Below are positions 28,104-45,576 of a DNA stretch of 64,000 bases, one piece after another. The DNA is taken from the NCBI GenBank assembly GCA_963666285.1, contig OY762711.1. The stretch is one strand, 5' to 3'. The first letter of the stretch is position 1, and the number at the start of each line of letters is the position of its first letter. The notes beneath the pieces were generated by a model. That model made no database searches. It saw only the letters and a program-made list of their open reading frames with translations, and was not told the origin of the DNA. Made by a program: the position numbers and the translations under genes. The DNA is from Sedimentisphaerales bacterium (lineage in GTDB: Bacteria > Planctomycetota > Phycisphaerae > Sedimentisphaerales > SM23-30).

Positions 28104-28496
28104 ATGATTACTGAAAAAAAACAAGCTGAACTTGAAACCAGAATGGCTGATTGCGGCCTTTTGGAATCTGATATCGAAGAAACCTTTATTAAGGGTTCCG
28201 GACCGGGCGGACAAAAGGTCAACAAAACATCTTCATGCGTTCAACTTAAACATGGGCCTACCGGAATAATGGTTAAAATGCAGAAAGAAAGATCACTACA
28301 ACTTAACCGATTCTTCGCCCGGCGAAAACTTTGCGAACTCATCGAACAATCACAGGGAACAAAAACTCCGGAACAAGTCAAAGCCGAAAAGATCAGGAAA
28401 CAGAAACAACGCAGAAAGCGTAGATCCTCACCTAAACGCTCAGCTACTCCACCGGTTGCTTCAGAAAACTCAAATCCTACCAGCCAAGATAGCTAA
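28104..28496 (+). CDS. Codon-independent peptidyl-tRNA hydrolase / release-factor-like protein (ArfB-like)
   Basis: GSGPGGQKVNKTSS GGQ motif, no codon-recognition domains, basic C-terminal tail. Confidence 0.85.
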   Translation: MITEKKQAELETRMADCGLLESDIEETFIKGSGPGGQKVNKTSSCVQLKHGPTGIMVKMQKERSLQLNRFFARRKLCELIEQSQGTKTPEQVKAEKIRKQKQRRKRRSSPKRSATPPVASENSNPTSQDS

Positions 28497-30387
28497 CCCG
28501 GTTATCCACCAGCCCAACCCCGCCTTTATATATATCTGACTTGATTATGGTGGTAAACTTATAACCAAGATCATCCTGCAAATGCACCACATCGCCCAGA
28601 ATCTTTAATGTCTCCGCTCCATGGCTGCAATCCTGCAACGCCCTCTTTATCACTGGCTCTATCTTATATTCGCTGCCCATCTCAGCCAGAAACACCATCG
28701 CCCTTACCCTCGTCAACGGCGAACTATCGCCACTCATCTCTATCGCTTCTTTCTCAAATTCGATTGCGGTATTGCCAAATGCCGCACATACCGTCATAGA
28801 CCAGAAACGAGCTATCGGATCACTAGACTTTATCGCTGATATAATACCATTTCTAGCCTCTCCATATGGCTTCAGCATCAAATCTGCAATATCTACATAT
28901 CTCCTGATACGAGCTTTATTCTCCCTGCCATACTCCCCAGGATCTTTTATGCCGTTCTCCTTTAGAAATACTGATTCCGGTATTATCCCCAGGTCCGGCA
29001 TTGACACAACTCTATCATACAGCTTTTTCTGCATCTCACTGAGAACAGAGGCATATTCCGGTTTTTCTGCCAGATTATTTGTCTCAAAGGGGTCTTTCTC
29101 CAAATCATACAGCTCATGCCCACTCCTCGGCTCAAAAAATAATGCCTGCGCTGCTGTCAGATTACCGGCCTTAAACATATCACGCCACTGCACAAAAGAC
29201 TGGATTCCCATCCGATAATTATTCTGCAGCGAATACGGCACAAACGGCTCGTAGTTTCGCACATACTTATACTTGCCCTTGCGAAAACTGCGAACCAGCA
29301 GATACAGCTCATCAAATCGATCTGAACTGCACAACACCTCATCCCGAGCATTCAGATCGGCCGGTGAAATACCCTTACCCAGAAACGGTCGGCCGTCCAT
29401 CCCCGCTGGAATTTCAATTCCGGCCAGATTCAGGCTCGTTGCTCCAAAATCAACAAAGCTGACAAATCCGCTTATCTTGCCACCCTGCCCTTGTGGCGAC
29501 AGATGCTTAAATCTCTCCGGCACATGCACTACCAGCGGCACATGCAAACCGGTTTCTGTTATATATCCCTTACTGCCGGGCATCGTACCGCCGTTATCAC
29601 CAATAAAAAAGATAAAGGTATTGTCATACAGCCCGTCTTCCTTTATTGCTTTAACCATATCTCCCACCAGTCGGTCCAGATCTCTTATCCGGTCAAAATA
29701 GGTAGCATATGTTTTCCGAAACTGCCTGGTATCTGGATGCACAGGATACAGTTTTACTGAATCTAAGCTGGTCTGCGGTGAGGAAAGTTTGCCACGTACC
29801 TTTGACTCATGGCTAATTGTAAATGTACGAACATGAAAGAACGGCATATCAGGACTGGGCCTGTCCCGCCACGCATATACGCCGGCAGCGGCATTATCCC
29901 ACGCTCCTGCTCCGGTACAATTATAGTCTGTTTTGGTTGAGTTTGTTGTATAATAACCGGCATCACGCATATACTTCGGAAAACGCTCTAAACCATCCGG
30001 TAAATTGGCAAATTCTATCCTACGATGCCACTGCAAACCTGCCCTGCTGGGATAACAACTCGAAATCAGCGATGATCTCGCTGCTGAACATACCGCAACA
30101 TTACAGAAGGTATTTGAAAACATCAACCCATCTTTTGCCAGTGAATTAATGTTTGGTGTTTCTATTCCATAATCATTATCAAACAGCTTAAACCAATGCT
30201 TCGAACAGTCCTCACCCATAATCCATACAATATTCGGACGCTCGGCTTCTTGTTTAGAACCGCTCGCTCCATACTTCTCCATATCTGAACTATTAGAATA
30301 GTCGTTACCATATATTGGTGTTCCTGCCGTATTAAGCACCAATACAACCATTGCCATGAAACAAAAAACTGACTTTCTAATAAACAT
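28477..30387 (-). CDS. Secreted formylglycine-type sulfatase with C-terminal HEAT-like region
   Basis: RPNIVWIMGED; CSAARSSL (CxAxR variant); GDNG; ELYDLEKDPFETNNLA. Confidence 0.92.
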   Translation of the reverse strand: MFIRKSVFCFMAMVVLVLNTAGTPIYGNDYSNSSDMEKYGASGSKQEAERPNIVWIMGEDCSKHWFKLFDNDYGIETPNINSLAKDGLMFSNTFCNVAVCSAARSSLISSCYPSRAGLQWHRRIEFANLPDGLERFPKYMRDAGYYTTNSTKTDYNCTGAGAWDNAAAGVYAWRDRPSPDMPFFHVRTFTISHESKVRGKLSSPQTSLDSVKLYPVHPDTRQFRKTYATYFDRIRDLDRLVGDMVKAIKEDGLYDNTFIFFIGDNGGTMPGSKGYITETGLHVPLVVHVPERFKHLSPQGQGGKISGFVSFVDFGATSLNLAGIEIPAGMDGRPFLGKGISPADLNARDEVLCSSDRFDELYLLVRSFRKGKYKYVRNYEPFVPYSLQNNYRMGIQSFVQWRDMFKAGNLTAAQALFFEPRSGHELYDLEKDPFETNNLAEKPEYASVLSEMQKKLYDRVVSMPDLGIIPESVFLKENGIKDPGEYGRENKARIRRYVDIADLMLKPYGEARNGIISAIKSSDPIARFWSMTVCAAFGNTAIEFEKEAIEMSGDSSPLTRVRAMVFLAEMGSEYKIEPVIKRALQDCSHGAETLKILGDVVHLQDDLGYKFTTIIKSDIYKGGVGLVDNRVSYLGW

Positions 30388-31940: not shown

Positions 31941-32726
31941 TTACTGTGCTTTCAATACTGCTCCACTCTTCGGCTTATAAACTTGCACGCGATTATTGCC
32001 TGTATCTGCTATATACAACCAACCTGTCGACTTATCAATGTATAAACCGTGTAGGTTGTCAAACTGACCTGGTTCTGAACCCTCGAAACCCCACATTGTT
32101 ATAAACTTTCCGGAACTGTCAAAAACCTGTATCCGGTCATTCCCTATTTCGGAGACAAATATATTGTCATTTTTATCTATCGCTATACCAGCTGGTGCCT
32201 TAAACTCGCCCGGATCGGAGCCAATATTGCCCCAATGCCTTAACAGCTTACCATCCGCTGAAAATACCTGAATACGATCATTCTTTAGGTCTGATACAAA
32301 TATCTCACCCTTACTATTGGCTTTGGCAGCTTCTGGGTTATTTACCTTGCCAGGTTTTGAACCTAAACGACTGAATAGGTATAGAAAGTTTCCTTCTAAA
32401 TCAAATACATTTATTCGATGATTACCGGCTTCCGGCATAAACAACTTACCTTCGTAGATGCTCATAAACTCTGATTTTATATTCTCCCCCGGAGCTTCAC
32501 CATAATCACTGAAGGTTTTTATCCATTCATAATTTTTATTATAAACCTTGACATAACCGGTATTATAATCTGCTACATAAATATCGCCTTTGGGGCTTAC
32601 TGCTATTCCTTCCGAACCAAACGTCATTAAATATTCATAATATGGATTATCCTCGGCTTTCACTATTCGCGGAACTATTACTGCCGCAAGAACCAATATT
32701 ACCAATAATTTCCTATTCATTTTCAC
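31941..32726 (-). CDS. Secreted NHL-repeat beta-propeller protein
   Basis: Repeated GSxPGxFxxPxGIAxD...IFVSDxxNDRIQVF; signal peptide; GTG start after an AGGAG RBS. Confidence 0.9.
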   Translation of the reverse strand: MKMNRKLLVILVLAAVIVPRIVKAEDNPYYEYLMTFGSEGIAVSPKGDIYVADYNTGYVKVYNKNYEWIKTFSDYGEAPGENIKSEFMSIYEGKLFMPEAGNHRINVFDLEGNFLYLFSRLGSKPGKVNNPEAAKANSKGEIFVSDLKNDRIQVFSADGKLLRHWGNIGSDPGEFKAPAGIAIDKNDNIFVSEIGNDRIQVFDSSGKFITMWGFEGSEPGQFDNLHGLYIDKSTGWLYIADTGNNRVQVYKPKSGAVLKAQ

Positions 32727-33721: not shown

Positions 33722-35368
33722 AACCCGGACAAGCCGGAACCAAACAGGTTTTTATAATTATATTTACGCTGCATAAGAATTCCACGATAATGTATCAGAA
33801 TTATTATGCAGAACTTTATTGAACGACATTTTAACAAAATTAAGGGAGTTACCTCCTGTTTTGACCGTGTCATATTTACTGGTACAATACCGGGAATATG
33901 TTTTGCCGATGGAATGACTGTGCATTTGCGTAAACACAACATTCGAATATTTGATTTCACTAAATGGGCTGAACCTTTGCGTGACCTCATTAATGAAAAC
34001 GCCAAAGTTGTTGCATCTGACAATGGTCTTGAGATAGAATTTATTCGTAAAAAGAATTTCCGCAAAGAGAAAGTTATTAAACAGATAATTGACCAAAGAG
34101 GTAATCACCCTGGGCTGGTACATATTTTCTCGGCTATGGAAACCTGCAGCAGCTATGAACCATGGCATAACAAACAAACCGGAAAAACTTATATTAGAGG
34201 TTCTCAGGGAAGGTGTTTGCATTATTATTTCTATTTTATTGATAAAGCATTGGGGCTCTGCTATTTGAGAGTACCAACCTGGGCTCCGTTCCGATTGCAA
34301 TTGTACTTTAACGGTCATAATCAACTGGCTGCTAAATTGAAAAGTAAAAATATCGATTACACCATGCTTGACAATGTTTTTATTGATATCGAAGATTTCG
34401 ACAAGGCCCAAAAGCTCAGTGACAGCCTTAGCGTCAACCAGCTTCATCGCATTATTGAAAAATATGCTACTACTTATTGTCCTGTAATTACAGAGCTTAA
34501 GGAAAATTTCCACTGGAGTATAATGCAGGCGGAATATGCTACAGACATTGTTTTCAAAAAACAATCTGACCTGACCTGTATATATGAGGAATTGACCAGA
34601 ACAGCTATTCATTCGGTTAAGGCTGATAATATCGCCACCTTCCTGGGAAGAAAGTTGTATACCAGCTATGAAGGTGAAATGGGCAATGACTTTAGCACCA
34701 GAATTGAAGGCACACGGATAAAACATCACATGGGGCCGGCTTCTGTCAAAATGTACGATAAGCATAAGCTTGTTCTGCGAATTGAGACAACAGTTAATGA
34801 TGTCAGCTTTTTCAAACACTACCGCAAGGTGGAACATCGCGACGGCACAACGAGCATGAAGCAGGCTCCGTTGCGTAAAAGTATTTATTCCTTTCCGGTT
34901 CTCACCGACCTGCTTGCCGCTTCTAATAGAAGATATATTGACTTTATCTCGGCTATTGATGACCCTACCTCTGCTAATAAGGATATTGATAAAATCTCCA
35001 GAGCTAAAAAGAAAAACGGTCGCAGTTTCAAAGGGTTTAATCTGTTCAACAAAGATGACCTTAAACTGATGCAAACTGTGTTGAGAGGAGAATTTAATAT
35101 CAATGGCTTTACCAGCAAACTTTTGAGAAAACACATGGGTAATAAAACCCCTAATCAGGTCTCCAGGATGCTCAAAAGACTCCGAATACATGGCCTGATT
35201 AAGAAAATCGGAAAAACGTACAAATACTATCTGACCAAAATGGGAAGAAGAGTTATTACCGCTGCTTTGAAAGCAAAGGAAATGCTCCTTATCCCTTTGC
35301 TCAGAGGTAATTTGAACTAATTGTAATAATTTCTTTGCCATTTTGCGCAAAATTTTATTGGTAAGATA
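33722..35368 (+). mobile_element. IS-like element without TIRs, flanked by the 9-bp direct repeat CTAATACCT
   Basis: CTAATACCT at 33713-33721 and 35369-35377; removing the insert restores the element seen at 9168-9334; subterminal CCGGACAAGCCGG and ATTTTGCGCAAAAT palindromes. Confidence 0.8.
33806..35320 (+). CDS. Putative transposase (504 aa, basic, KMYDK..RIET motif, C-terminal winged HTH)
   Basis: Only sense gene filling the inserted element; C-terminal VSRMLKRLRIHGLIKKIGKTYKYYLT is winged-HTH-like. Confidence 0.75.
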   Translation: MQNFIERHFNKIKGVTSCFDRVIFTGTIPGICFADGMTVHLRKHNIRIFDFTKWAEPLRDLINENAKVVASDNGLEIEFIRKKNFRKEKVIKQIIDQRGNHPGLVHIFSAMETCSSYEPWHNKQTGKTYIRGSQGRCLHYYFYFIDKALGLCYLRVPTWAPFRLQLYFNGHNQLAAKLKSKNIDYTMLDNVFIDIEDFDKAQKLSDSLSVNQLHRIIEKYATTYCPVITELKENFHWSIMQAEYATDIVFKKQSDLTCIYEELTRTAIHSVKADNIATFLGRKLYTSYEGEMGNDFSTRIEGTRIKHHMGPASVKMYDKHKLVLRIETTVNDVSFFKHYRKVEHRDGTTSMKQAPLRKSIYSFPVLTDLLAASNRRYIDFISAIDDPTSANKDIDKISRAKKKNGRSFKGFNLFNKDDLKLMQTVLRGEFNINGFTSKLLRKHMGNKTPNQVSRMLKRLRIHGLIKKIGKTYKYYLTKMGRRVITAALKAKEMLLIPLLRGNLN

Positions 35369-35408: not shown

Positions 35409-35594
35409 TTACATTTTCTTATCCTGCTGTTCTTTCCAAACCTGCTGAGCTTCGCTGTACAACTCCAGCATATCAGCCTCAGAGCTGCCGAATTTCTCGC
35501 ACAGCTCTCCCAGCATATTATAATGCGAACCATTAAAGTAACGACTGTCACTCAACATCTGCACCAACTGCTCGATTATTCGCTTTTTGTCCAT
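35409..35594 (-). CDS. Small hypothetical protein (61 aa)
   Basis: GAGG RBS; lies co-directionally after the lipoprotein gene. Confidence 0.55.
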   Translation of the reverse strand: MDKKRIIEQLVQMLSDSRYFNGSHYNMLGELCEKFGSSEADMLELYSEAQQVWKEQQDKKM

Positions 35595-35643: not shown

Positions 35644-37137
35644 TTAGTTCAGTTTTATAGTCTTCTTAACTTCCAGCTCACCGGACAGCGGACCGGTCTC
35701 CTGCGTCAAAGTTACTGTATATGTTCCGGCTTCTGGTCCTCGCCACGAGAACCCGCAAAGTCCGCTTCAACCATACTCCATATCTTGATCCACAAGGGAA
35801 TCACCCTTTGAATCTGTTATCACCAGGTGAGCACTCAGCCTTTCGTATCTGGCCTTGTTATTTTCGTCCAGGTACTTCTTCCTGAAACCGCTATACTTCT
35901 CTCCGCTGCTGCCGACAAAGCTTGCATCAATAATCAGGGTACTATCCTTACTAAACTCTGTTTTAGATTTTTTATCACCTTTCTCCGTCACCAGTATATC
36001 CGCTTTTATACCGCCAACCTCTATAACCGTAGGATTATCTTTTGCAATAGTTATAGTATCTGCATCACGGAAAGACGCCATAAACTCTTTCAATTCACTC
36101 TCTCCGTATGACATCGAACCATAAACTAAACGATAATCGCCAACCGGTATCGCTGACATTTCCTTGCCGATAATCATCGACAAAGTTGGGTCATTTTTAC
36201 CTTCGATCAATGTATATGTCAGATCACACAATATTGCATCTTTATCTTTCACTTTACAGGTGAAACTATTCACCGCACTCTTATCCTCTGCCAGGACGGC
36301 TTTCATTTCAATATCAGACACCCGATCCAGCCTGAACCTGTAATAGCTGTCATCAATCTTTAGTAGCGAACTCAACCGTGTCGCCGGCAGAAACGGCTTC
36401 TCTGCAATTCCTTCTTCTTCTACCAGCGTAAAATAACTCGAACCGTATACGGCATAACTCTGCTTATATACATTGAAAGGCACCATCATCTTATAAGACT
36501 TGCCTTTGAAAACCAGATCGCCTTCAAACTGACAAACTGACGAACACCGAACCTTGAATTGGCCATCTTTCATAAACGGACACACCAGCAGCTTCAGCGG
36601 TAACGTTTCTCCATATTCTCCAGTTATACGGAAATCAGGCGTGATAAAGCTGCCGTAGTCGCCAAAACGATTGGCAATATTTTCGTCCATCTCGAATCGT
36701 TCACCTTCATCCAGCTCGTTATCCCTGTCCAGATCAAGATACAAACCCAATACATCGGTATCTTTATATTCCAGCGCAGCATAGTTTTTTTTCCCCAGCA
36801 CCGTACTCGAAAATACAAAAAGGCTGTTATCACCGGCTTTCTCCTCGGCCGACTTTATAAATAATGTCTCGACCTTTTTTTCCGGCTCTTTTGACGAATA
36901 CCACCTAAACCTGCCGGGCCATTCATCTTCGTTACCGTTACAGCTGCGATATTCCAGCTTTACCGAGATCGGCTCACCCAGTTCCAACCCGCTCCAGTCC
37001 GGTTCCGGCCTTTTTTCCTGCTTGACGCTTTTGGACGGCTCTGACACCCCATTATCAGCATCTTTTTCGCATCCGGAGCATAATAATGCTCCCAGAACCA
37101 GCGGTATAATAATAACTTGCCAATATCTTTTTTTCAT
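35644..37137 (-). CDS. Lipoprotein; candidate selenoprotein (UGA at 35767-35769; 497 aa if recoded, 456 aa otherwise)
   Basis: Lipobox CSGC; frame continues past TGA as MEYG-U-SGLCGFSWRGPEAGTYTVTLTQETGPLSGELEVKKTIKLN to TAA at 35644. Confidence 0.7.
35735..35753 (-). promoter_or_regulatory. Candidate bacterial SECIS hairpin
   Basis: GGUUCUCG-UGG-CGAGGACC, an 8-bp stem starting 13 nt after the UGA, with G in the apical loop. Confidence 0.6.
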
Positions 37138-37548: not shown

Positions 37549-38091
37549 ATGAATGTAAAACAGGACAATTTTGATAATAGCCCGGAAGAGAGGCATAAAA
37601 TCTTCTTCCAGTTATATGCCAACTATCAGAACCGATTGTTGGGCTATTTGTACATGATGCTTCACAATGAGAATGATGCTGAAGATATTCTTCAGGAAAC
37701 AGCTGCTACTCTATGGGAGCAATTTGACACTTTCGAGCCCGGGACAAACTTTTCTGCTTGGGCCACTCGGATCGCCCGTAACAAGGCACTCAACTTTTTA
37801 AAGAAAAATTCCCGGTCACGTGTTCACTTCGGCGACGATTTTTATGATAGAATCGCAGCTATCGAAGTTGAAAATGACCAGGCTCTTTCCGAGAGAAGTC
37901 AGGCTTTGAAAAAATGCCTGAAAAAACTCAGCAAAACCGATATGGAACTTTTATCTGTCAGGTATATCAAAGGATCACCTATGAAAACAATCGCCGAGAC
38001 ATTCGGCAGGTCAAAAACCGGCATATACCACTCTATGGCACGAATACACAATTTATTACACAGCTGCATTGAAAGAAGTCTACAGAGCTGA
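37549..38091 (+). CDS. ECF sigma-70 factor (Rhodopirellula/Verrucomicrobium type)
   Basis: DAEDILQE...GTNFSAWATRIARNK; region 4 CLKKLS...RY. Confidence 0.93.
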   Translation: MNVKQDNFDNSPEERHKIFFQLYANYQNRLLGYLYMMLHNENDAEDILQETAATLWEQFDTFEPGTNFSAWATRIARNKALNFLKKNSRSRVHFGDDFYDRIAAIEVENDQALSERSQALKKCLKKLSKTDMELLSVRYIKGSPMKTIAETFGRSKTGIYHSMARIHNLLHSCIERSLQS

Positions 38092-39835
38092 TCCCATTGC
38101 TCCAAAAATACACATGCTAAATGACAAAGATAAAAATGAATTAAGCCTGCTGATAATTGAGTTGCTTGACGGCACTATCAGCGATGAGCGATTATCAAAA
38201 CTTGATGATTGGCTCAGGCATTCTACTGCTGCTTTTGATTATTACTGCAGCTATACCCGCAACCTCATGGTATTAAAACATCAGCTGCAGCTTTCTGATA
38301 TCAGCGAAAATGGCTCTGTTGGTGAAAATATTCTCCAGTCGCTTGCCAGAAACGAACAGGACGCCCCGGAAATTATCTTAGAAAAAATCGATAATACTCC
38401 CATCCCCCAGGCAAAAGCTATAGACAATACCCAGACCTGTCCAAATAAGTTCTATCGTTTATACAGCAGGATTATTTCTATTGCTGCGGTATTGATGATT
38501 GTATTCATTGTTTACGCCAACTTGTTTCCGCCGCAGTATATCACGCCAATAGCCAAAGTCATAGACCAGGTAGATGCCCAGTGGTCACAGGATATAGAAC
38601 CTCTCAATAATGGTGACCGCATCTATACCAACCAGCCTACATATAAGCTAAAATCTGGTATTGTAAAGATATTGTACGACTACGGTGCCGAGGTTCTTAT
38701 CGAAGGCCCCGCTGAGTTTAAGCCGGTTGACGCTGAAAAGATGATACTCGATTCTGGACGTATTTATGTTAGTGTTCCACCTCACGCCGCCGGTTTTACC
38801 GCCGTTACACCCACAGGTACAATTATTGACCTGGGCACCGAATTCGGTGTCAGTGTTGCCTACGATGGCAGTACCGATGTTCACATGTTCAAAGGTAAAG
38901 CATCTGTCATCCCCGGCATGTCCGGCCAAAAAGAAAAAGGGCTGCTTATCACTGCCGGCCAGGCCAAAAATGTAGATCGTACAGGCGATGTAGCTGATAT
39001 ACAGGTAAATACCAACGAGTTTATCGATCCTGAATTATTTAGGGCCTTAAGCAAAGTAGATAAAAATTCACCATATTATCGCTGGCTGGTGTACAGTATA
39101 AATCTCAGACGTGACCCATCACTCGTAGCATATTATACCTTCGATAAAAATGATTCATATCCTGATATCCTTGAAAATAAAGCTTCTTTAACCGGCGGCA
39201 GAATAAACGGCAAACTTTATAGTGCCGCCGATGGTAAATTGCCAGCTTGGGTAGAGGGCAGATGGCCCCAGAAATCCGCTCTTAGCTTTAACCGTTCTGA
39301 GCATCAGGTAGTTACTGTCCCCGGTATTCCAGAGCTCTGTATCGATGGACCAATTACAATAGCAGCCTGGGTCAGATGTGACACACCTCAAGATGGCGGG
39401 CATATCGTCTCCTGTAGACAGAATATCGGCAACAAAACTGGTAATTTCCAGTTTGGTTTCAAATCACCTAAGGTGCAAGATTCTGCATGGCCCGGCAAAA
39501 TGCAACTGGGGCGAATGGAATGTTACGGTGCTACCGCTTCGGTAGGAGATAGAGTATATAGCAACCGAACATTTTTACCATCTTCTAATTGGCGTTTTAT
39601 AGCTGCTACTCACGACAATCATACTGCCAAATTTTACGTTGATGGCAAGATGATTGAATGTCTTGATTTTAATTATCATAAAGCATCTGTAGCTGCTGAT
39701 CTGGTAATTGGTGCTGATGATATTATGGGTGATCCATTACGCTTCACCGGTGAGATGGATGAATTGATGATATTCAATTCTGTAATTAACGAAAAAGAAA
39801 TAAGTGAAATTTACAAGGCCGGAAGGCCTTTTTAA
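38069..39835 (+). CDS. FecR-like anti-sigma factor with C-terminal LamG-like jellyroll domain (true start may be ATG 38114)
   Basis: Single TM; GFTAVTPTGTIIDLGTEFGV FecR motif; LVAYYTFD...FTGEMDELMIFN LamG motif. Confidence 0.88.
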   Translation: MKEVYRADPIAPKIHMLNDKDKNELSLLIIELLDGTISDERLSKLDDWLRHSTAAFDYYCSYTRNLMVLKHQLQLSDISENGSVGENILQSLARNEQDAPEIILEKIDNTPIPQAKAIDNTQTCPNKFYRLYSRIISIAAVLMIVFIVYANLFPPQYITPIAKVIDQVDAQWSQDIEPLNNGDRIYTNQPTYKLKSGIVKILYDYGAEVLIEGPAEFKPVDAEKMILDSGRIYVSVPPHAAGFTAVTPTGTIIDLGTEFGVSVAYDGSTDVHMFKGKASVIPGMSGQKEKGLLITAGQAKNVDRTGDVADIQVNTNEFIDPELFRALSKVDKNSPYYRWLVYSINLRRDPSLVAYYTFDKNDSYPDILENKASLTGGRINGKLYSAADGKLPAWVEGRWPQKSALSFNRSEHQVVTVPGIPELCIDGPITIAAWVRCDTPQDGGHIVSCRQNIGNKTGNFQFGFKSPKVQDSAWPGKMQLGRMECYGATASVGDRVYSNRTFLPSSNWRFIAATHDNHTAKFYVDGKMIECLDFNYHKASVAADLVIGADDIMGDPLRFTGEMDELMIFNSVINEKEISEIYKAGRPF

Positions 39836-43120: not shown

Positions 43121-43680
43121 TCTCGAAAAAATCACCGCGTTTTTACATCCACCAAATCGCGAAAATGTAAAATTTCCAACAATTATATCCCGCTTATCCC
43201 CAACGCCTTACAAACTTCCAAACCAACCATCCCACCTAAAAAATCAGCGCACTTTCGACATACCATCCAATAGTAGAGAGCTAATAAAAAATGAGAACCG
43301 ACAAAAATCAGCTCTCGATAAAACATAACAACGACGAAAACTTCGTCTTAAACATAAACAACGCTCAATAAAAACTTAATATCTGCAACTAATTCGGGCA
43401 ATTCGCCCGCCGTAATTGACATTTCTACCTTTTTGGCAAACCTAACCATACTTTTTTCACTTTCGGGGGCAATAACCACATGGTCGGCCCATACAATTGT
43501 TGCCTTACAGTGTAACCTGGCTCACATACCCTATGTACCAGACCAGTGAGTACATATCCGTTCTGGTTGGAAAATTGCTTTATTTTGCTAAGTTTTTTTC
43601 TTATACTCAGATATGGAAATATAAATTGTTTTTGCCGGGATTCTGGCAGTTCAGAAGAAACGCAACAGAAAGGTTACATA

Positions 43681-45576
43681 ATGGAAAAAATCGTCAAAAA
43701 ATATGCGTTAGCCCTTATTATTACAGTATTTACATTCACCTGCATTGCAAATGCAGAAGATGAAGCCAAATCTTCAGATATGAACCTGGTCGAAAAAGTC
43801 GTCGAAACGCTTTCAGACAGCGTCGATCAGAAACCGGAAGAAACTGTCGAGGAAGAAAAATATACCATCGCTGTTATCACAATGGCAGGCATATGTATTG
43901 ACCGCCCTGACGTTGAGATTATGTCACTGGCAGGCAGTAAAAGCTCTTTCGATATACTCACAATGGCAGAAAGATTCCGCAAAGCCAAAGACGACGAAAA
44001 AATCGATGCTGTTCTGCTTGATTTTAAAGGCCTGGGCATGAACCTCGGCCAGATCACCTACTTCCGCAAACTTATCAAGGAAATCCAGGACGCAGACAAG
44101 CCGGTTTACGCTTATTCCGAATACCTCAGCCAGAGCCAATATCTGCTGGCATCGGCATGTGACCAGGTAATTATTACTCATTCCGGCGAACTCGAGCTTT
44201 ACGGACTGGCAGGCGAAGCTCTTTACTTCAAAGGGGCTATGGATAAAATCGGGCTGGGTGCTGACATGATCAGCGTTGGCCGGTATAAATCTGCCGCAGA
44301 ACAGCTCACCCGCACCGGTCCGAGCAAAGCCGAAATGGAACAAACCGGCGAATTGATGGACTCTTTATTTAATATTATGTCAGGCATGATCAGCGAATCC
44401 AGAAACATGCCGGTTGAGAAAGTTACGGAACTGATAGACAGAGGACCATTCTCACCTAGGGAAGCAATCCAGGAAGATTTGATCGATAAGGTAATGTATC
44501 GAGACGAGTTCATTGCAGAACTTAGCGAAACCAACGGCAGAGTATCACTAAAACTTAACTACGGAGCAGCTCCGGTATATGCAAGTTACGGAGGCGGCGA
44601 TATTTTCTCTATTATGCAGGAAATATTAAAACCAGCCCCAACTTACGAAGAGAAAGGTGACTGTATCGCAGTTGTTTGTATCGATGGCGTTATCGCCTCC
44701 GGCGGCGGAGATTCTTACGATGGAACCGCAACCGGGTCGGAAACTATCCGTAATATTATGAAATACTGCCGTAATAATGAACATATCAAGGGAATTGTAG
44801 TTCGTATCGATTCCCCGGGCGGCAGTGCCATGGCCAGTGATATTATCTACCACTCTATCAAACGAACCGCAAAGGTTAAGCCGCTGGTTGTCAGTATGGG
44901 TTCAGTTGCCGCATCAGGCGGTTACTATACTGCATGCGGCAGCGAAACTATTTTTGCCGATGAATCTACTATTACTGGCTCTATCGGCGTAGTTGGCGGA
45001 AAAGTATATTACGGCGATCTGCTCGATAAAGTGGGGATAAGTCATCACAGCTGGCATCGAGGCCAGAACTCACGGATGCTAAGCTCACTAAAAGCTTTCA
45101 GCCCACTGGAGAAGCAGAAGATAACCAACCAGATGCTGGAAACATACAGTATATTCAAAGAAAGAATACTGGCAACCAGAGCCGGTAAAATTTCTTCTGA
45201 CCTGGAAAACCTGGCTCAAGGCAGGGTTTATACCGGTCAGCAGGCTCTTAAACTCGGGCTCATAGACAAAATCGGAAGCTTTGAAGATGCTATAAGCTAT
45301 ATCGCAAAAGAAATCAAAACCGAAGACTACGATCTTATCTGGCTGCCGAGACCGATGACTTTAATGGAAACACTGGATTCACTTCTAGCTGTCGCAGAAC
45401 CCGCCCAGAATGACCAGGCAAAGAGTAAAATACAAAACAACAAGATTATTGACCTGATCCAGAATAATCTGGGGCCATACGGTAAAGAAATTGCCAATAT
45501 CTACAAGATGATTAGCATAATGGACAGCGAGAAAGTATTGACTGTCATGCCTTACCAGCTTATATTGCAATATTAA
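43681..45576 (+). CDS. sppA: Signal peptide peptidase SppA (long two-domain form)
   Basis: Likely start ATG 43681; GRYKSA; RIDSPGGS; SMGSVAASGGYY; TITGSIGV. Confidence 0.93.
   Translation: MEKIVKKYALALIITVFTFTCIANAEDEAKSSDMNLVEKVVETLSDSVDQKPEETVEEEKYTIAVITMAGICIDRPDVEIMSLAGSKSSFDILTMAERFRKAKDDEKIDAVLLDFKGLGMNLGQITYFRKLIKEIQDADKPVYAYSEYLSQSQYLLASACDQVIITHSGELELYGLAGEALYFKGAMDKIGLGADMISVGRYKSAAEQLTRTGPSKAEMEQTGELMDSLFNIMSGMISESRNMPVEKVTELIDRGPFSPREAIQEDLIDKVMYRDEFIAELSETNGRVSLKLNYGAAPVYASYGGGDIFSIMQEILKPAPTYEEKGDCIAVVCIDGVIASGGGDSYDGTATGSETIRNIMKYCRNNEHIKGIVVRIDSPGGSAMASDIIYHSIKRTAKVKPLVVSMGSVAASGGYYTACGSETIFADESTITGSIGVVGGKVYYGDLLDKVGISHHSWHRGQNSRMLSSLKAFSPLEKQKITNQMLETYSIFKERILATRAGKISSDLENLAQGRVYTGQQALKLGLIDKIGSFEDAISYIAKEIKTEDYDLIWLPRPMTLMETLDSLLAVAEPAQNDQAKSKIQNNKIIDLIQNNLGPYGKEIANIYKMISIMDSEKVLTVMPYQLILQY

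Follow-up and report, generated by a model that had tools for sequence, protein, structure and literature searches.

Whether an in-frame UGA codon ends translation or is decoded as selenocysteine (Sec) is the question raised by a gene of the Sedimentisphaerales bacterium assembly GCA_963666285.1, located on the minus strand of a 64,000-nucleotide stretch of contig OY762711.1 (hereafter the window), which corresponds to C1:4224001-4288000 within a genome of 6.35 Mb on four contigs. The open reading frame (ORF) called with translation table 11 spans 35767-37137 and ends at ...DQDMEYG-TGA, as described by the first-pass annotation which had proposed a new selenoprotein at this place. The analysis reported here indicates that the gene is very probably a real selenoprotein gene in which UGA codon 457 (35767..35769) is decoded as Sec. 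As far as can be judged from the sequences, it belongs to a large family of exported, immunoglobulin (Ig)-like and apparently Sec-only proteins which is absent from the catalogues searched. The mechanism of UGA recoding is the known bacterial one, while the family, its fold context, the lack of cysteine (Cys) forms and a subfamily associated with selenium gene clusters are new.

Reading frame and conservation beyond the UGA codon

Behind the UGA, the frame continues as SGLCGFSWRGPEAGTYTVTLTQETGPLSGELEVKKTIKLN for exactly 40 codons up to a TAA at 35646-35644, which agrees with the continuation originally noted. The read-through translation of the complete gene (35644..37137, minus strand) thus comprises 497 codons plus TAA, and the ATG of the next gene is found at 35594. 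The U-x-x-x-C motif of the earlier proposal is formed by U457 and C461, with the codon of the partner Cys461 at 35755..35757. At present, the gene is called as a 456-residue protein, and its database copy is likewise cut at the TGA.

Six members of the family occur in the same genome, i.e., the window gene, four places detected by tblastn with the read-through query and one recovered by a motif scan. All six carry TGA in the same column with conserved sequence on both sides and share the motif [YF]-G-U-x-[GD]-x-C-x-x-x-W-R. The individual versions are MEYG-U-SGLCGFSWRGP in the window gene (C1 4259769, minus strand), LEYG-U-GGLCGFSWREP in a full-length paralog of 33% identity (C1 498566, minus), MPFG-U-GGTCGYAWRIP (C1 5361320, plus), FDYG-U-GDLCEYSWRVP (C1 1429006, plus), FTFG-U-GGTCRSSWRAP in a paralog upstream of selA (C1 4441377, minus) and LEYG-U-GGTCSLSWREP (C1 4460979, minus). 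A tblastn comparison extended to 40 relatives yielded matches in 8 of the 41 genomes, and all 16 alignments cross exactly one TGA and are conserved beyond it, as would be expected for the coding continuation that had been suggested.

To cover a broader range, the strict DNA pattern TWY GGN TGA GGN GGN NNN TGY N9 TGG MG was run on contigs of one genome per species and matched at least 135 stretches, which were parsed into 139 distinct sites, with about 17 chance matches being expected according to our own estimate from the information content of the pattern. The pattern undercounts the family: the window gene, in which AGC follows the TGA, escapes it, as does a further paralog. Altogether, 136 of the 139 listed sites were judged family-like and continue in frame, and homologs which end at the UGA without downstream conservation, named beforehand as a contrary outcome, were not seen among them. 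Three sites (L048, L061, L086) were set aside as chance matches, featuring unrelated sequence in frames which are open for 7-68 codons upstream and 12-22 codons downstream.

Protein databases contain the family mainly in truncated form. A word-indexed homolog search with the whole protein retrieved the truncated self-copy alone, and 100 homologs emerged from an exhaustive comparison with 1.84 billion representatives; because of identities of only 20-41%, these are not assembly copies of one sequence. Seventy of these end in YG or FG, i.e., at the Sec site where the gene callers stopped. A profile of 17 small members found eight database proteins, seven of them cut at [YF]G and one (P0103) with Gly at the Sec column. 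Thirteen database homologs were aligned over this column, 12 of them running through and one (P0099) being a 41-residue fragment that starts only after it and was called as a protein of its own; the column is occupied by Gly, Ala, Lys, Arg, Trp or a gap. In one homolog of 919 residues (P0010), the entire lipoprotein architecture is duplicated in tandem, with Sec and Cys being lost in the first copy (…ESWNVEEFSWK…) and the second ending in …DLEYG, presumably at the Sec TGA.

If the TGA were a genuine stop, a 456-residue lipoprotein would be made and the downstream stretch would be untranslated or form a separate small gene. Gene callers annotate 70 of the 100 homologs in exactly this way, and the separate call of P0099 follows the same logic. 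Nevertheless, the downstream frame is conserved at the protein level in paralogs with 25-33% identity as well as at more than 130 loci while lacking a start codon of its own, and the lengths of the tails are restricted: among the 74 complete ORFs obtained from the listed pattern loci, 51 end 37-51 residues past Sec. A true stop is, therefore, regarded as highly improbable.

A conserved hairpin behind the UGA codon

In Escherichia coli fdhF, an in-frame UGA is followed by a selenocysteine insertion sequence (SECIS), a stem-loop within the ORF which carries a G in its apical loop and acts in a SelB-dependent manner. A comparable hairpin, GGUUCUCG-UGG-CGAGGACC, starts 13 nt past the UGA of the window gene (35735..35753, minus strand), where an 8-bp stem with a G in the loop had been predicted. 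It consists of a 5' arm at 35753-35746, a UGG loop at 35745-35743 and a 3' arm at 35742-35735, with eight pairs including one G.U. The element lies inside the reading frame, the loop being the conserved codon of Trp465 and the arms the codons flanking it. The minimum free energy (MFE) of the region is -17.8 kcal/mol. The lower pairing suggested in addition (CGG.CUUU / AGAAGCCG; 35727..35764) was confirmed in part, as the MFE folds of the window gene and its closest paralog contain it, whereas the flanking columns vary across the family alignment and lend no support to its conservation.

For comparative analysis, 148 distinct segments of 51 nt from the TGA onward were aligned without gaps. The same genome and its relatives contributed 14 of them; the remaining 134 derive from the pattern sites, without the three chance matches, duplicates and segments truncated by a contig end. 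Columns 17-24 and 28-35 are paired in 87.8% of the cells, compared with 23-54% if the partners are slid by 1-3 columns, and two-sided changes occur in five of the eight pairs. Keeping in mind that the aligned sequences are mutually related, 99 double-change cells were observed versus 26 +/- 10 after shuffling, and none of 500 shuffles attained 99. Examples are pair 19-33 (U-A 73, C-G 44, U-G 24), pair 20-32 (A-U 101, U-A 30) and pair 22-30 (U-A 125, U-G 12, A-U 8). At the level of codons, the residues two before and two after the Trp co-vary as reverse complements (UAC/GUA 65, CUC/GAG 26, UAC/GUG 19, CAC/GUG 14). The Val codon opposite Tyr UAC features only A or G as third base, and the Glu codon opposite Leu CUC is always GAG. 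These limits represent a constraint on synonymous sites and are thus not expected from protein selection alone. Judged by this covariation, the hairpin is a conserved RNA structure whose pairing is maintained via compensatory codon changes.

The same alignment shows TGA in all 148 sites and an invariant TGY for Cys461 (columns 13-15), the latter being imposed by the search pattern for most of the rows; the Cys is also kept in the paralogs of the same genome which were recovered by tblastn without a Cys requirement. Considered in isolation, a stop codon with 40 codons of frame still to follow resembles a nonsense mutation, and the window gene could then be taken for a pseudogene. Such an origin is next to inconceivable for a TGA column that recurs in six paralogs and 148 aligned sites of many lineages, within a gene which contains no other stop or frameshift.

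Selenocysteine machinery

The check for Sec machinery that had been recommended gave a complete result. The genome encodes selA (471 bits against PF03841), selB (336 bits, over the cut-off of TIGR00475), two copies of selD, one of them with an in-frame TGA, and one tRNA-SeC with the anticodon tca. Likewise, selA was found over the curated cut-off in all ten other motif-bearing genomes tested (nine from a sample of the phylum plus G015). The Sec-containing selD is the second copy, located at C1:1953363-1954280(+) (locus L011), and reads ...PCAG-U-VGK...; it features a small hairpin with a G-containing CGU triloop at nearly the same distance from the UGA as in the new family.

Apart from Sec, the UGA could be read through by near-cognate insertion of Trp or Cys, by a suppressor tRNA or on account of a variant code. 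One homolog with Trp and one with Arg at this position, each a single base away from TGA, are in line with this explanation, as is the lack of Cys homologs pointing to selenol or thiol chemistry. The genetic code, in contrast, is standard, since selA and selB are free of internal TGA codons and other ORFs stop at TGA. This codon terminates 4 of the 23 long ORFs of the window, a usage which also fits a true stop in the gene concerned. Moreover, a hairpin at SECIS spacing always accompanies the site, the motif-bearing genomes tested possess selA throughout, and one subfamily lies next to sel genes (15 of 75 listed loci, see below). Insertion of a residue other than Sec thus appears very unlikely, and decoding as Sec is the reading followed here.

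Predicted structure of the selenocysteine domain

An AlphaFold2 model of the 497-residue form, calculated on an alignment of 61 rows, reached a mean predicted local distance difference test (pLDDT) score of 91.4 and a predicted template modelling (pTM) score of 0.85, with the blocks past the UGA scoring 93-98. As the strands 463-466, 471-480 and 487-496 all lie past the UGA, the tail constitutes an integral third of the last domain, and the former description of it as the closing strands of an Ig-like fold is well matched by the model. A product truncated at the UGA would be a broken beta-sandwich, which again argues against a true stop. According to DSSP, U457 is situated in a turn (456-459) and C461 just ahead of strand 463-466.

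The C-terminal domain bearing both residues (376-497; 35647..36012, minus strand) is a predicted Ig-like or macroglobulin-type beta-sandwich. In VIA-align comparisons with representatives, it aligns through residue 497 to whole Ig-like, FN3 or macroglobulin sandwiches, including 7ptp_A, an S-layer domain (Z 10.9, root-mean-square deviation (rmsd) 2.4, 96 aligned residues), 2p9r_B, the MG2 domain of human A2M (Z 9.5, rmsd 2.2, 94 aligned), and 4u48_A (Z 9.5). The model of the 178-residue paralog adjacent to selA (pLDDT 88.6) combines an N-terminal membrane helix with the same sandwich and best matches 4zjh_A, the MG1 domain of E. coli alpha-2-macroglobulin (Z 7.2, rmsd 2.3, 78 aligned). Overall, superpositions on solved sandwich domains gave Z 7.2 to 10.9 over 78-101 residues; in these models, the scores fix the fold class as an Ig-like sandwich, and neither function nor family. 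Foldseek searches with the whole model revealed weak multi-domain matches (e.g., integrin legs) with TM scores of at most 0.16, except for one of 0.21, among the matches listed, and no match at E <= 0.001 for the small paralog. In the ESM Atlas, the natural Gly-form homolog P0103 hit unnamed clusters only, with scores of at most 0.82.

In the proposed sequence of events, SelB with Sec-tRNA(Sec) would bind the hairpin on the mRNA being translated and insert Sec, as at E. coli fdhF, and the protein would then reach the envelope by export and be anchored there. Sec457 and Cys461 in the exposed inter-strand turn would form a reactive selenol/thiol pair, which might, as a guess, act as a reversible selenenylsulfide or as a binding site for chalcogens or soft metals.

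Evidence opposing selenocysteine insertion and the absence of a cysteine form

Several observations weigh against the interpretation as a selenoprotein, first of all the missing Cys form. A homolog with Cys in place of Sec is demanded by most prediction pipelines, a criterion which is customary and represents no mechanistic requirement. None of the 14 read-through homologs has Cys at the Sec column. Across 401 genomes sampled evenly from the phylum, the TGY form of the pattern was found in none, while the TGA form occurred in 10 genomes at 23 sites and a reversed-pattern control yielded 0. In metagenome contigs, at least 118 stretches matched the TGY pattern, and none was family-like among the matches listed, which mostly have stops nearby and a hairpin pairing of mostly at most 4/7; the only one listed that fitted [STAE]-W-R-x-P has unrelated flanks. 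The test of the Sec-column residue announced by the first-pass annotation is hence neutral: no Cys homolog appeared, and rare homologs with a sense codon carry G, A, K, R or W. By sequence, these residues look like secondary loss within an overwhelmingly TGA family. The missing Cys form is, therefore, treated as a property of the family and not as evidence against recoding, and it is still the main formal gap.

The hairpin, too, has its weaker sides. Its single-sequence fold is modest (z = -2.1), with 6 of 200 shuffles folding equally well, which is why the case rests on comparative evidence. The outermost pair (columns 17-35) is formed in just 62 of 148 segments and the loop-closing pair is present in 112 and lost in 36, so that the conserved core amounts to 6-7 bp. 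Furthermore, the covariation is situated within coding sequence, where co-variation of amino acids could contribute, and in most alignment rows the loop and two 3'-arm bases were prescribed by the search pattern. An Rfam scan of the SECIS region gave chance-level rows only (E 4-7).

The label as a lipoprotein, in turn, was assigned by eye. Bacterial lipoboxes follow the consensus [LVI][ASTVI][GAS]C at the end of the signal peptide. The N-terminus of the window protein, MKKRYWQVIIIPLVLGALLCSGC, was interpreted as a signal sequence (residues 1-23, ...LLCSGC; 37069..37137, minus strand) that may contain a lipobox, the C-S-G-C of which is atypical: in ...GALLCSGC, Ser at -2 and Gly at -1 agree with the consensus, but position -3 is Cys. 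Classical lipoboxes are present in several homologs (AAGC, MVGC, ASGC), and in the AlphaFold2 model residues 1-32 show low pLDDT with a helix at 7-17. The product of the window gene is thus predicted to be a 497-residue exported, all-beta protein which is probably lipid-anchored. Finally, the presence of selenium in the polypeptide is a prediction from sequence, and the chemistry proposed for the Sec/Cys pair a guess.

Distribution and architectures of the family

The Sec-bearing domain, as delimited by the DNA pattern, defines a large family in Planctomycetota, Verrucomicrobiota and a few other phyla. Among the first 80 records listed, most titles belong to Planctomycetota (Sedimentisphaerales, Phycisphaerae, Pirellulales, Planctomycetia) or Verrucomicrobiota (including Kiritimatiellia and Limisphaerales), with single titles from Hydrogenedentota, Riflebacteria, BRC1, Acidobacteriota and Actinomycetes. 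A hydrophobic N-terminal segment was found in 61 of the 74 complete ORFs, and the members of the family are, on these predictions, exported or membrane-anchored. Some are single-domain proteins of 140-220 residues, and F5/8 type C and Laminin_G_3 domains are additionally present in some of the large ones. Tails of at least 200 residues past Sec occur in 18 of the 74 ORFs, 15 of which feature membrane-like segments. At loci such as L027, L037, L046, L091 and L093, about 270-320 residues follow the Sec domain as a multi-pass membrane region, for which no Pfam or NCBIfam match was obtained.

Selenium gene neighbourhoods

A close spatial relation to selenium genes was found for the small 178-residue paralog (C1:4441252-4441785, minus strand), which lies about 27 nt upstream of selA, with selB following after selA. 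The divergent side of this locus (L161, C1:4436001-4452000) comprises the genes of an ABC transporter (NMT1-like binding protein, permease and ATPase) and, beyond these, selD fused to a carboxymuconolactone-decarboxylase (CMD, AhpD-like) domain, tRNA-SeC and a phage-type integrase. By its gene content, the locus looks like a selenium-utilisation cluster. A gene for an extracytoplasmic function (ECF) sigma factor is located just downstream of selB.

This arrangement recurs in other genomes. Within 2.5-kb flanks, selA, selB or selD was detected at 15 of the 75 listed pattern loci of at least 3 kb, on 14 distinct contigs (L035, L041, L042, L052, L059, L062, L065, L070, L073, L074, L076, L083, L095/L096 and L104). 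These loci stem from different lineages, with the neighbourhood being conserved and the gene orientation variable. In addition, selA shares a contig with a motif site, at a distance of at most about 3.5 kb, in five of the ten further genomes with the motif that were tested for selA. The sel-adjacent member is always of the small or the related 'GG-x-C-[RS]-x-[ST]-W-[RS]-V/A-P' type, so the linkage is a feature of the small membrane-anchored subfamily and not of the window gene, which lies 180 kb off.

The gene neighbourhood of this subfamily hints that the module may take part in handling selenium at the envelope. It can further be speculated, as a rather unlikely extension, that the Sec Ig-like module is an extracytoplasmic selenium-handling device without a Cys equivalent, in which Sec would covalently capture and carry selenium or another chalcogen, as SoxY does with sulfur. 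The small form, together with selA, selB, selD, the ABC importer and tRNA-Sec, would then feed Sec synthesis, and the same chemistry would serve at the cell surface in the larger forms (lipoproteins and multi-pass membrane proteins), the product of the window gene among them. SoxY is a sulfur carrier with an Ig-like fold and a carrier Cys in a Gly-rich GGCGG peptide at its C-terminus. Both are extracytoplasmic Ig-like proteins with a glycine-flanked reactive chalcogen residue (Y-G-U-G-G in the new family), a likeness to be taken as a lead, and the SoxZ-type structure 1v8h_A is among the weak Foldseek matches of the small paralog (E 0.017). Unlike the C-terminal carrier peptide of SoxY, the Sec motif is placed on an internal turn. 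No sox genes were noticed in the neighbourhood, and a SoxY match is lacking because there was no Pfam match of any kind.

Comparison with known selenoproteins and related folds

The family was compared with the existing collections of selenoproteins and protein domains. Scans of the window protein and 13 other family members against Pfam and NCBIfam (release 20) gave no model over the Sec domain, and in large members matched unrelated accessory domains only (F5/8 type C, Laminin_G_3, a T2SS-G-like tail). Table 1 of a recent review lists 119 prokaryotic selenoprotein families or subfamilies and includes no U-x-x-x-C or G-U-G-G-x-C motif (PMC13188914, 2026). The nearest entry by motif is 'Hypothetical protein DG' (NF049953, GUxG), whose model gave no match. 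The initial view that the protein falls outside the classical selenoprotein families is thereby borne out, and a full-text literature search on selenoproteins or selenocysteine in Planctomycetes, Phycisphaerae, Sedimentisphaer* and Kiritimatiell* revealed nothing on the family described here.

With the catalogued families, the window protein shares a predicted Sec beside Gly, and many of those are known from sequence only as well. Most of them are thioredoxin-like with UxxC or CxxU (PMC13188914), whereas the Sec domain of the window protein is an all-beta Ig-like sandwich with a spacer of three residues instead of two. Compared with fdhF, there is likewise a UGA followed by an in-frame stem-loop with a G in its loop, in a genome with selA, selB, selD and tRNA-Sec. 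The protein is, in contrast, unrelated to formate dehydrogenase, and the short hairpin of 7-8 bp, the putative binding site of SelB, carries the conserved Trp codon as a 3-nt loop. The MG, Ig-like and FN3 domains represent the same fold in the superpositions (2p9r_B, 4zjh_A, 7ptp_A), but sequence identity is 5-18% with no Pfam match, and the Z values are within the range of common beta-sandwich arrangements. To our knowledge, none of the domains compared carries Sec.

The discovery of bacterial selenoproteins leans heavily on pairs of Sec and Cys homologs, and a family without a detectable Cys counterpart is thus of the type that such pipelines would overlook. According to the authors of deep-Sep, selenoproteins lacking Cys homologs may escape their method (PMC12013277). 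The new family is nonetheless sizeable, numbering at least 135 loci among species-representative genomes, with six copies in the genome studied here and 70 of 100 homologs truncated at Sec. If the interpretation holds, the annotation of hundreds of truncated 'hypothetical proteins' from Planctomycetota and Verrucomicrobiota would be put right, the known homes of Sec would gain an exported Ig-like fold apart from thioredoxin, and a compact natural SECIS with a Trp codon as its loop would become available. The subfamily in sel clusters would, moreover, offer a testable handle on selenium acquisition or trafficking in these bacteria.

Neighbouring genes in the window

Divergently from the window gene, an ECF sigma-70 factor (37549-38091, plus strand) and a FecR-like, anti-sigma-like protein with Laminin_G_3 (38069-39835, plus) are encoded; owing to this divergent transcription, they may regulate the selenoprotein gene. 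On the other side, two ORFs of 528 residues (33764-35350, minus) and 504 residues (33806-35320, plus) overlap almost completely on opposite strands, neither of them with a Pfam match. Further neighbours are a sulfatase (28477-30387, minus), an NHL-repeat propeller protein (31941-32726, minus) and an S49 signal-peptide peptidase (43546-45576, plus), which represent ordinary gene content for the envelope and polysaccharide degradation.

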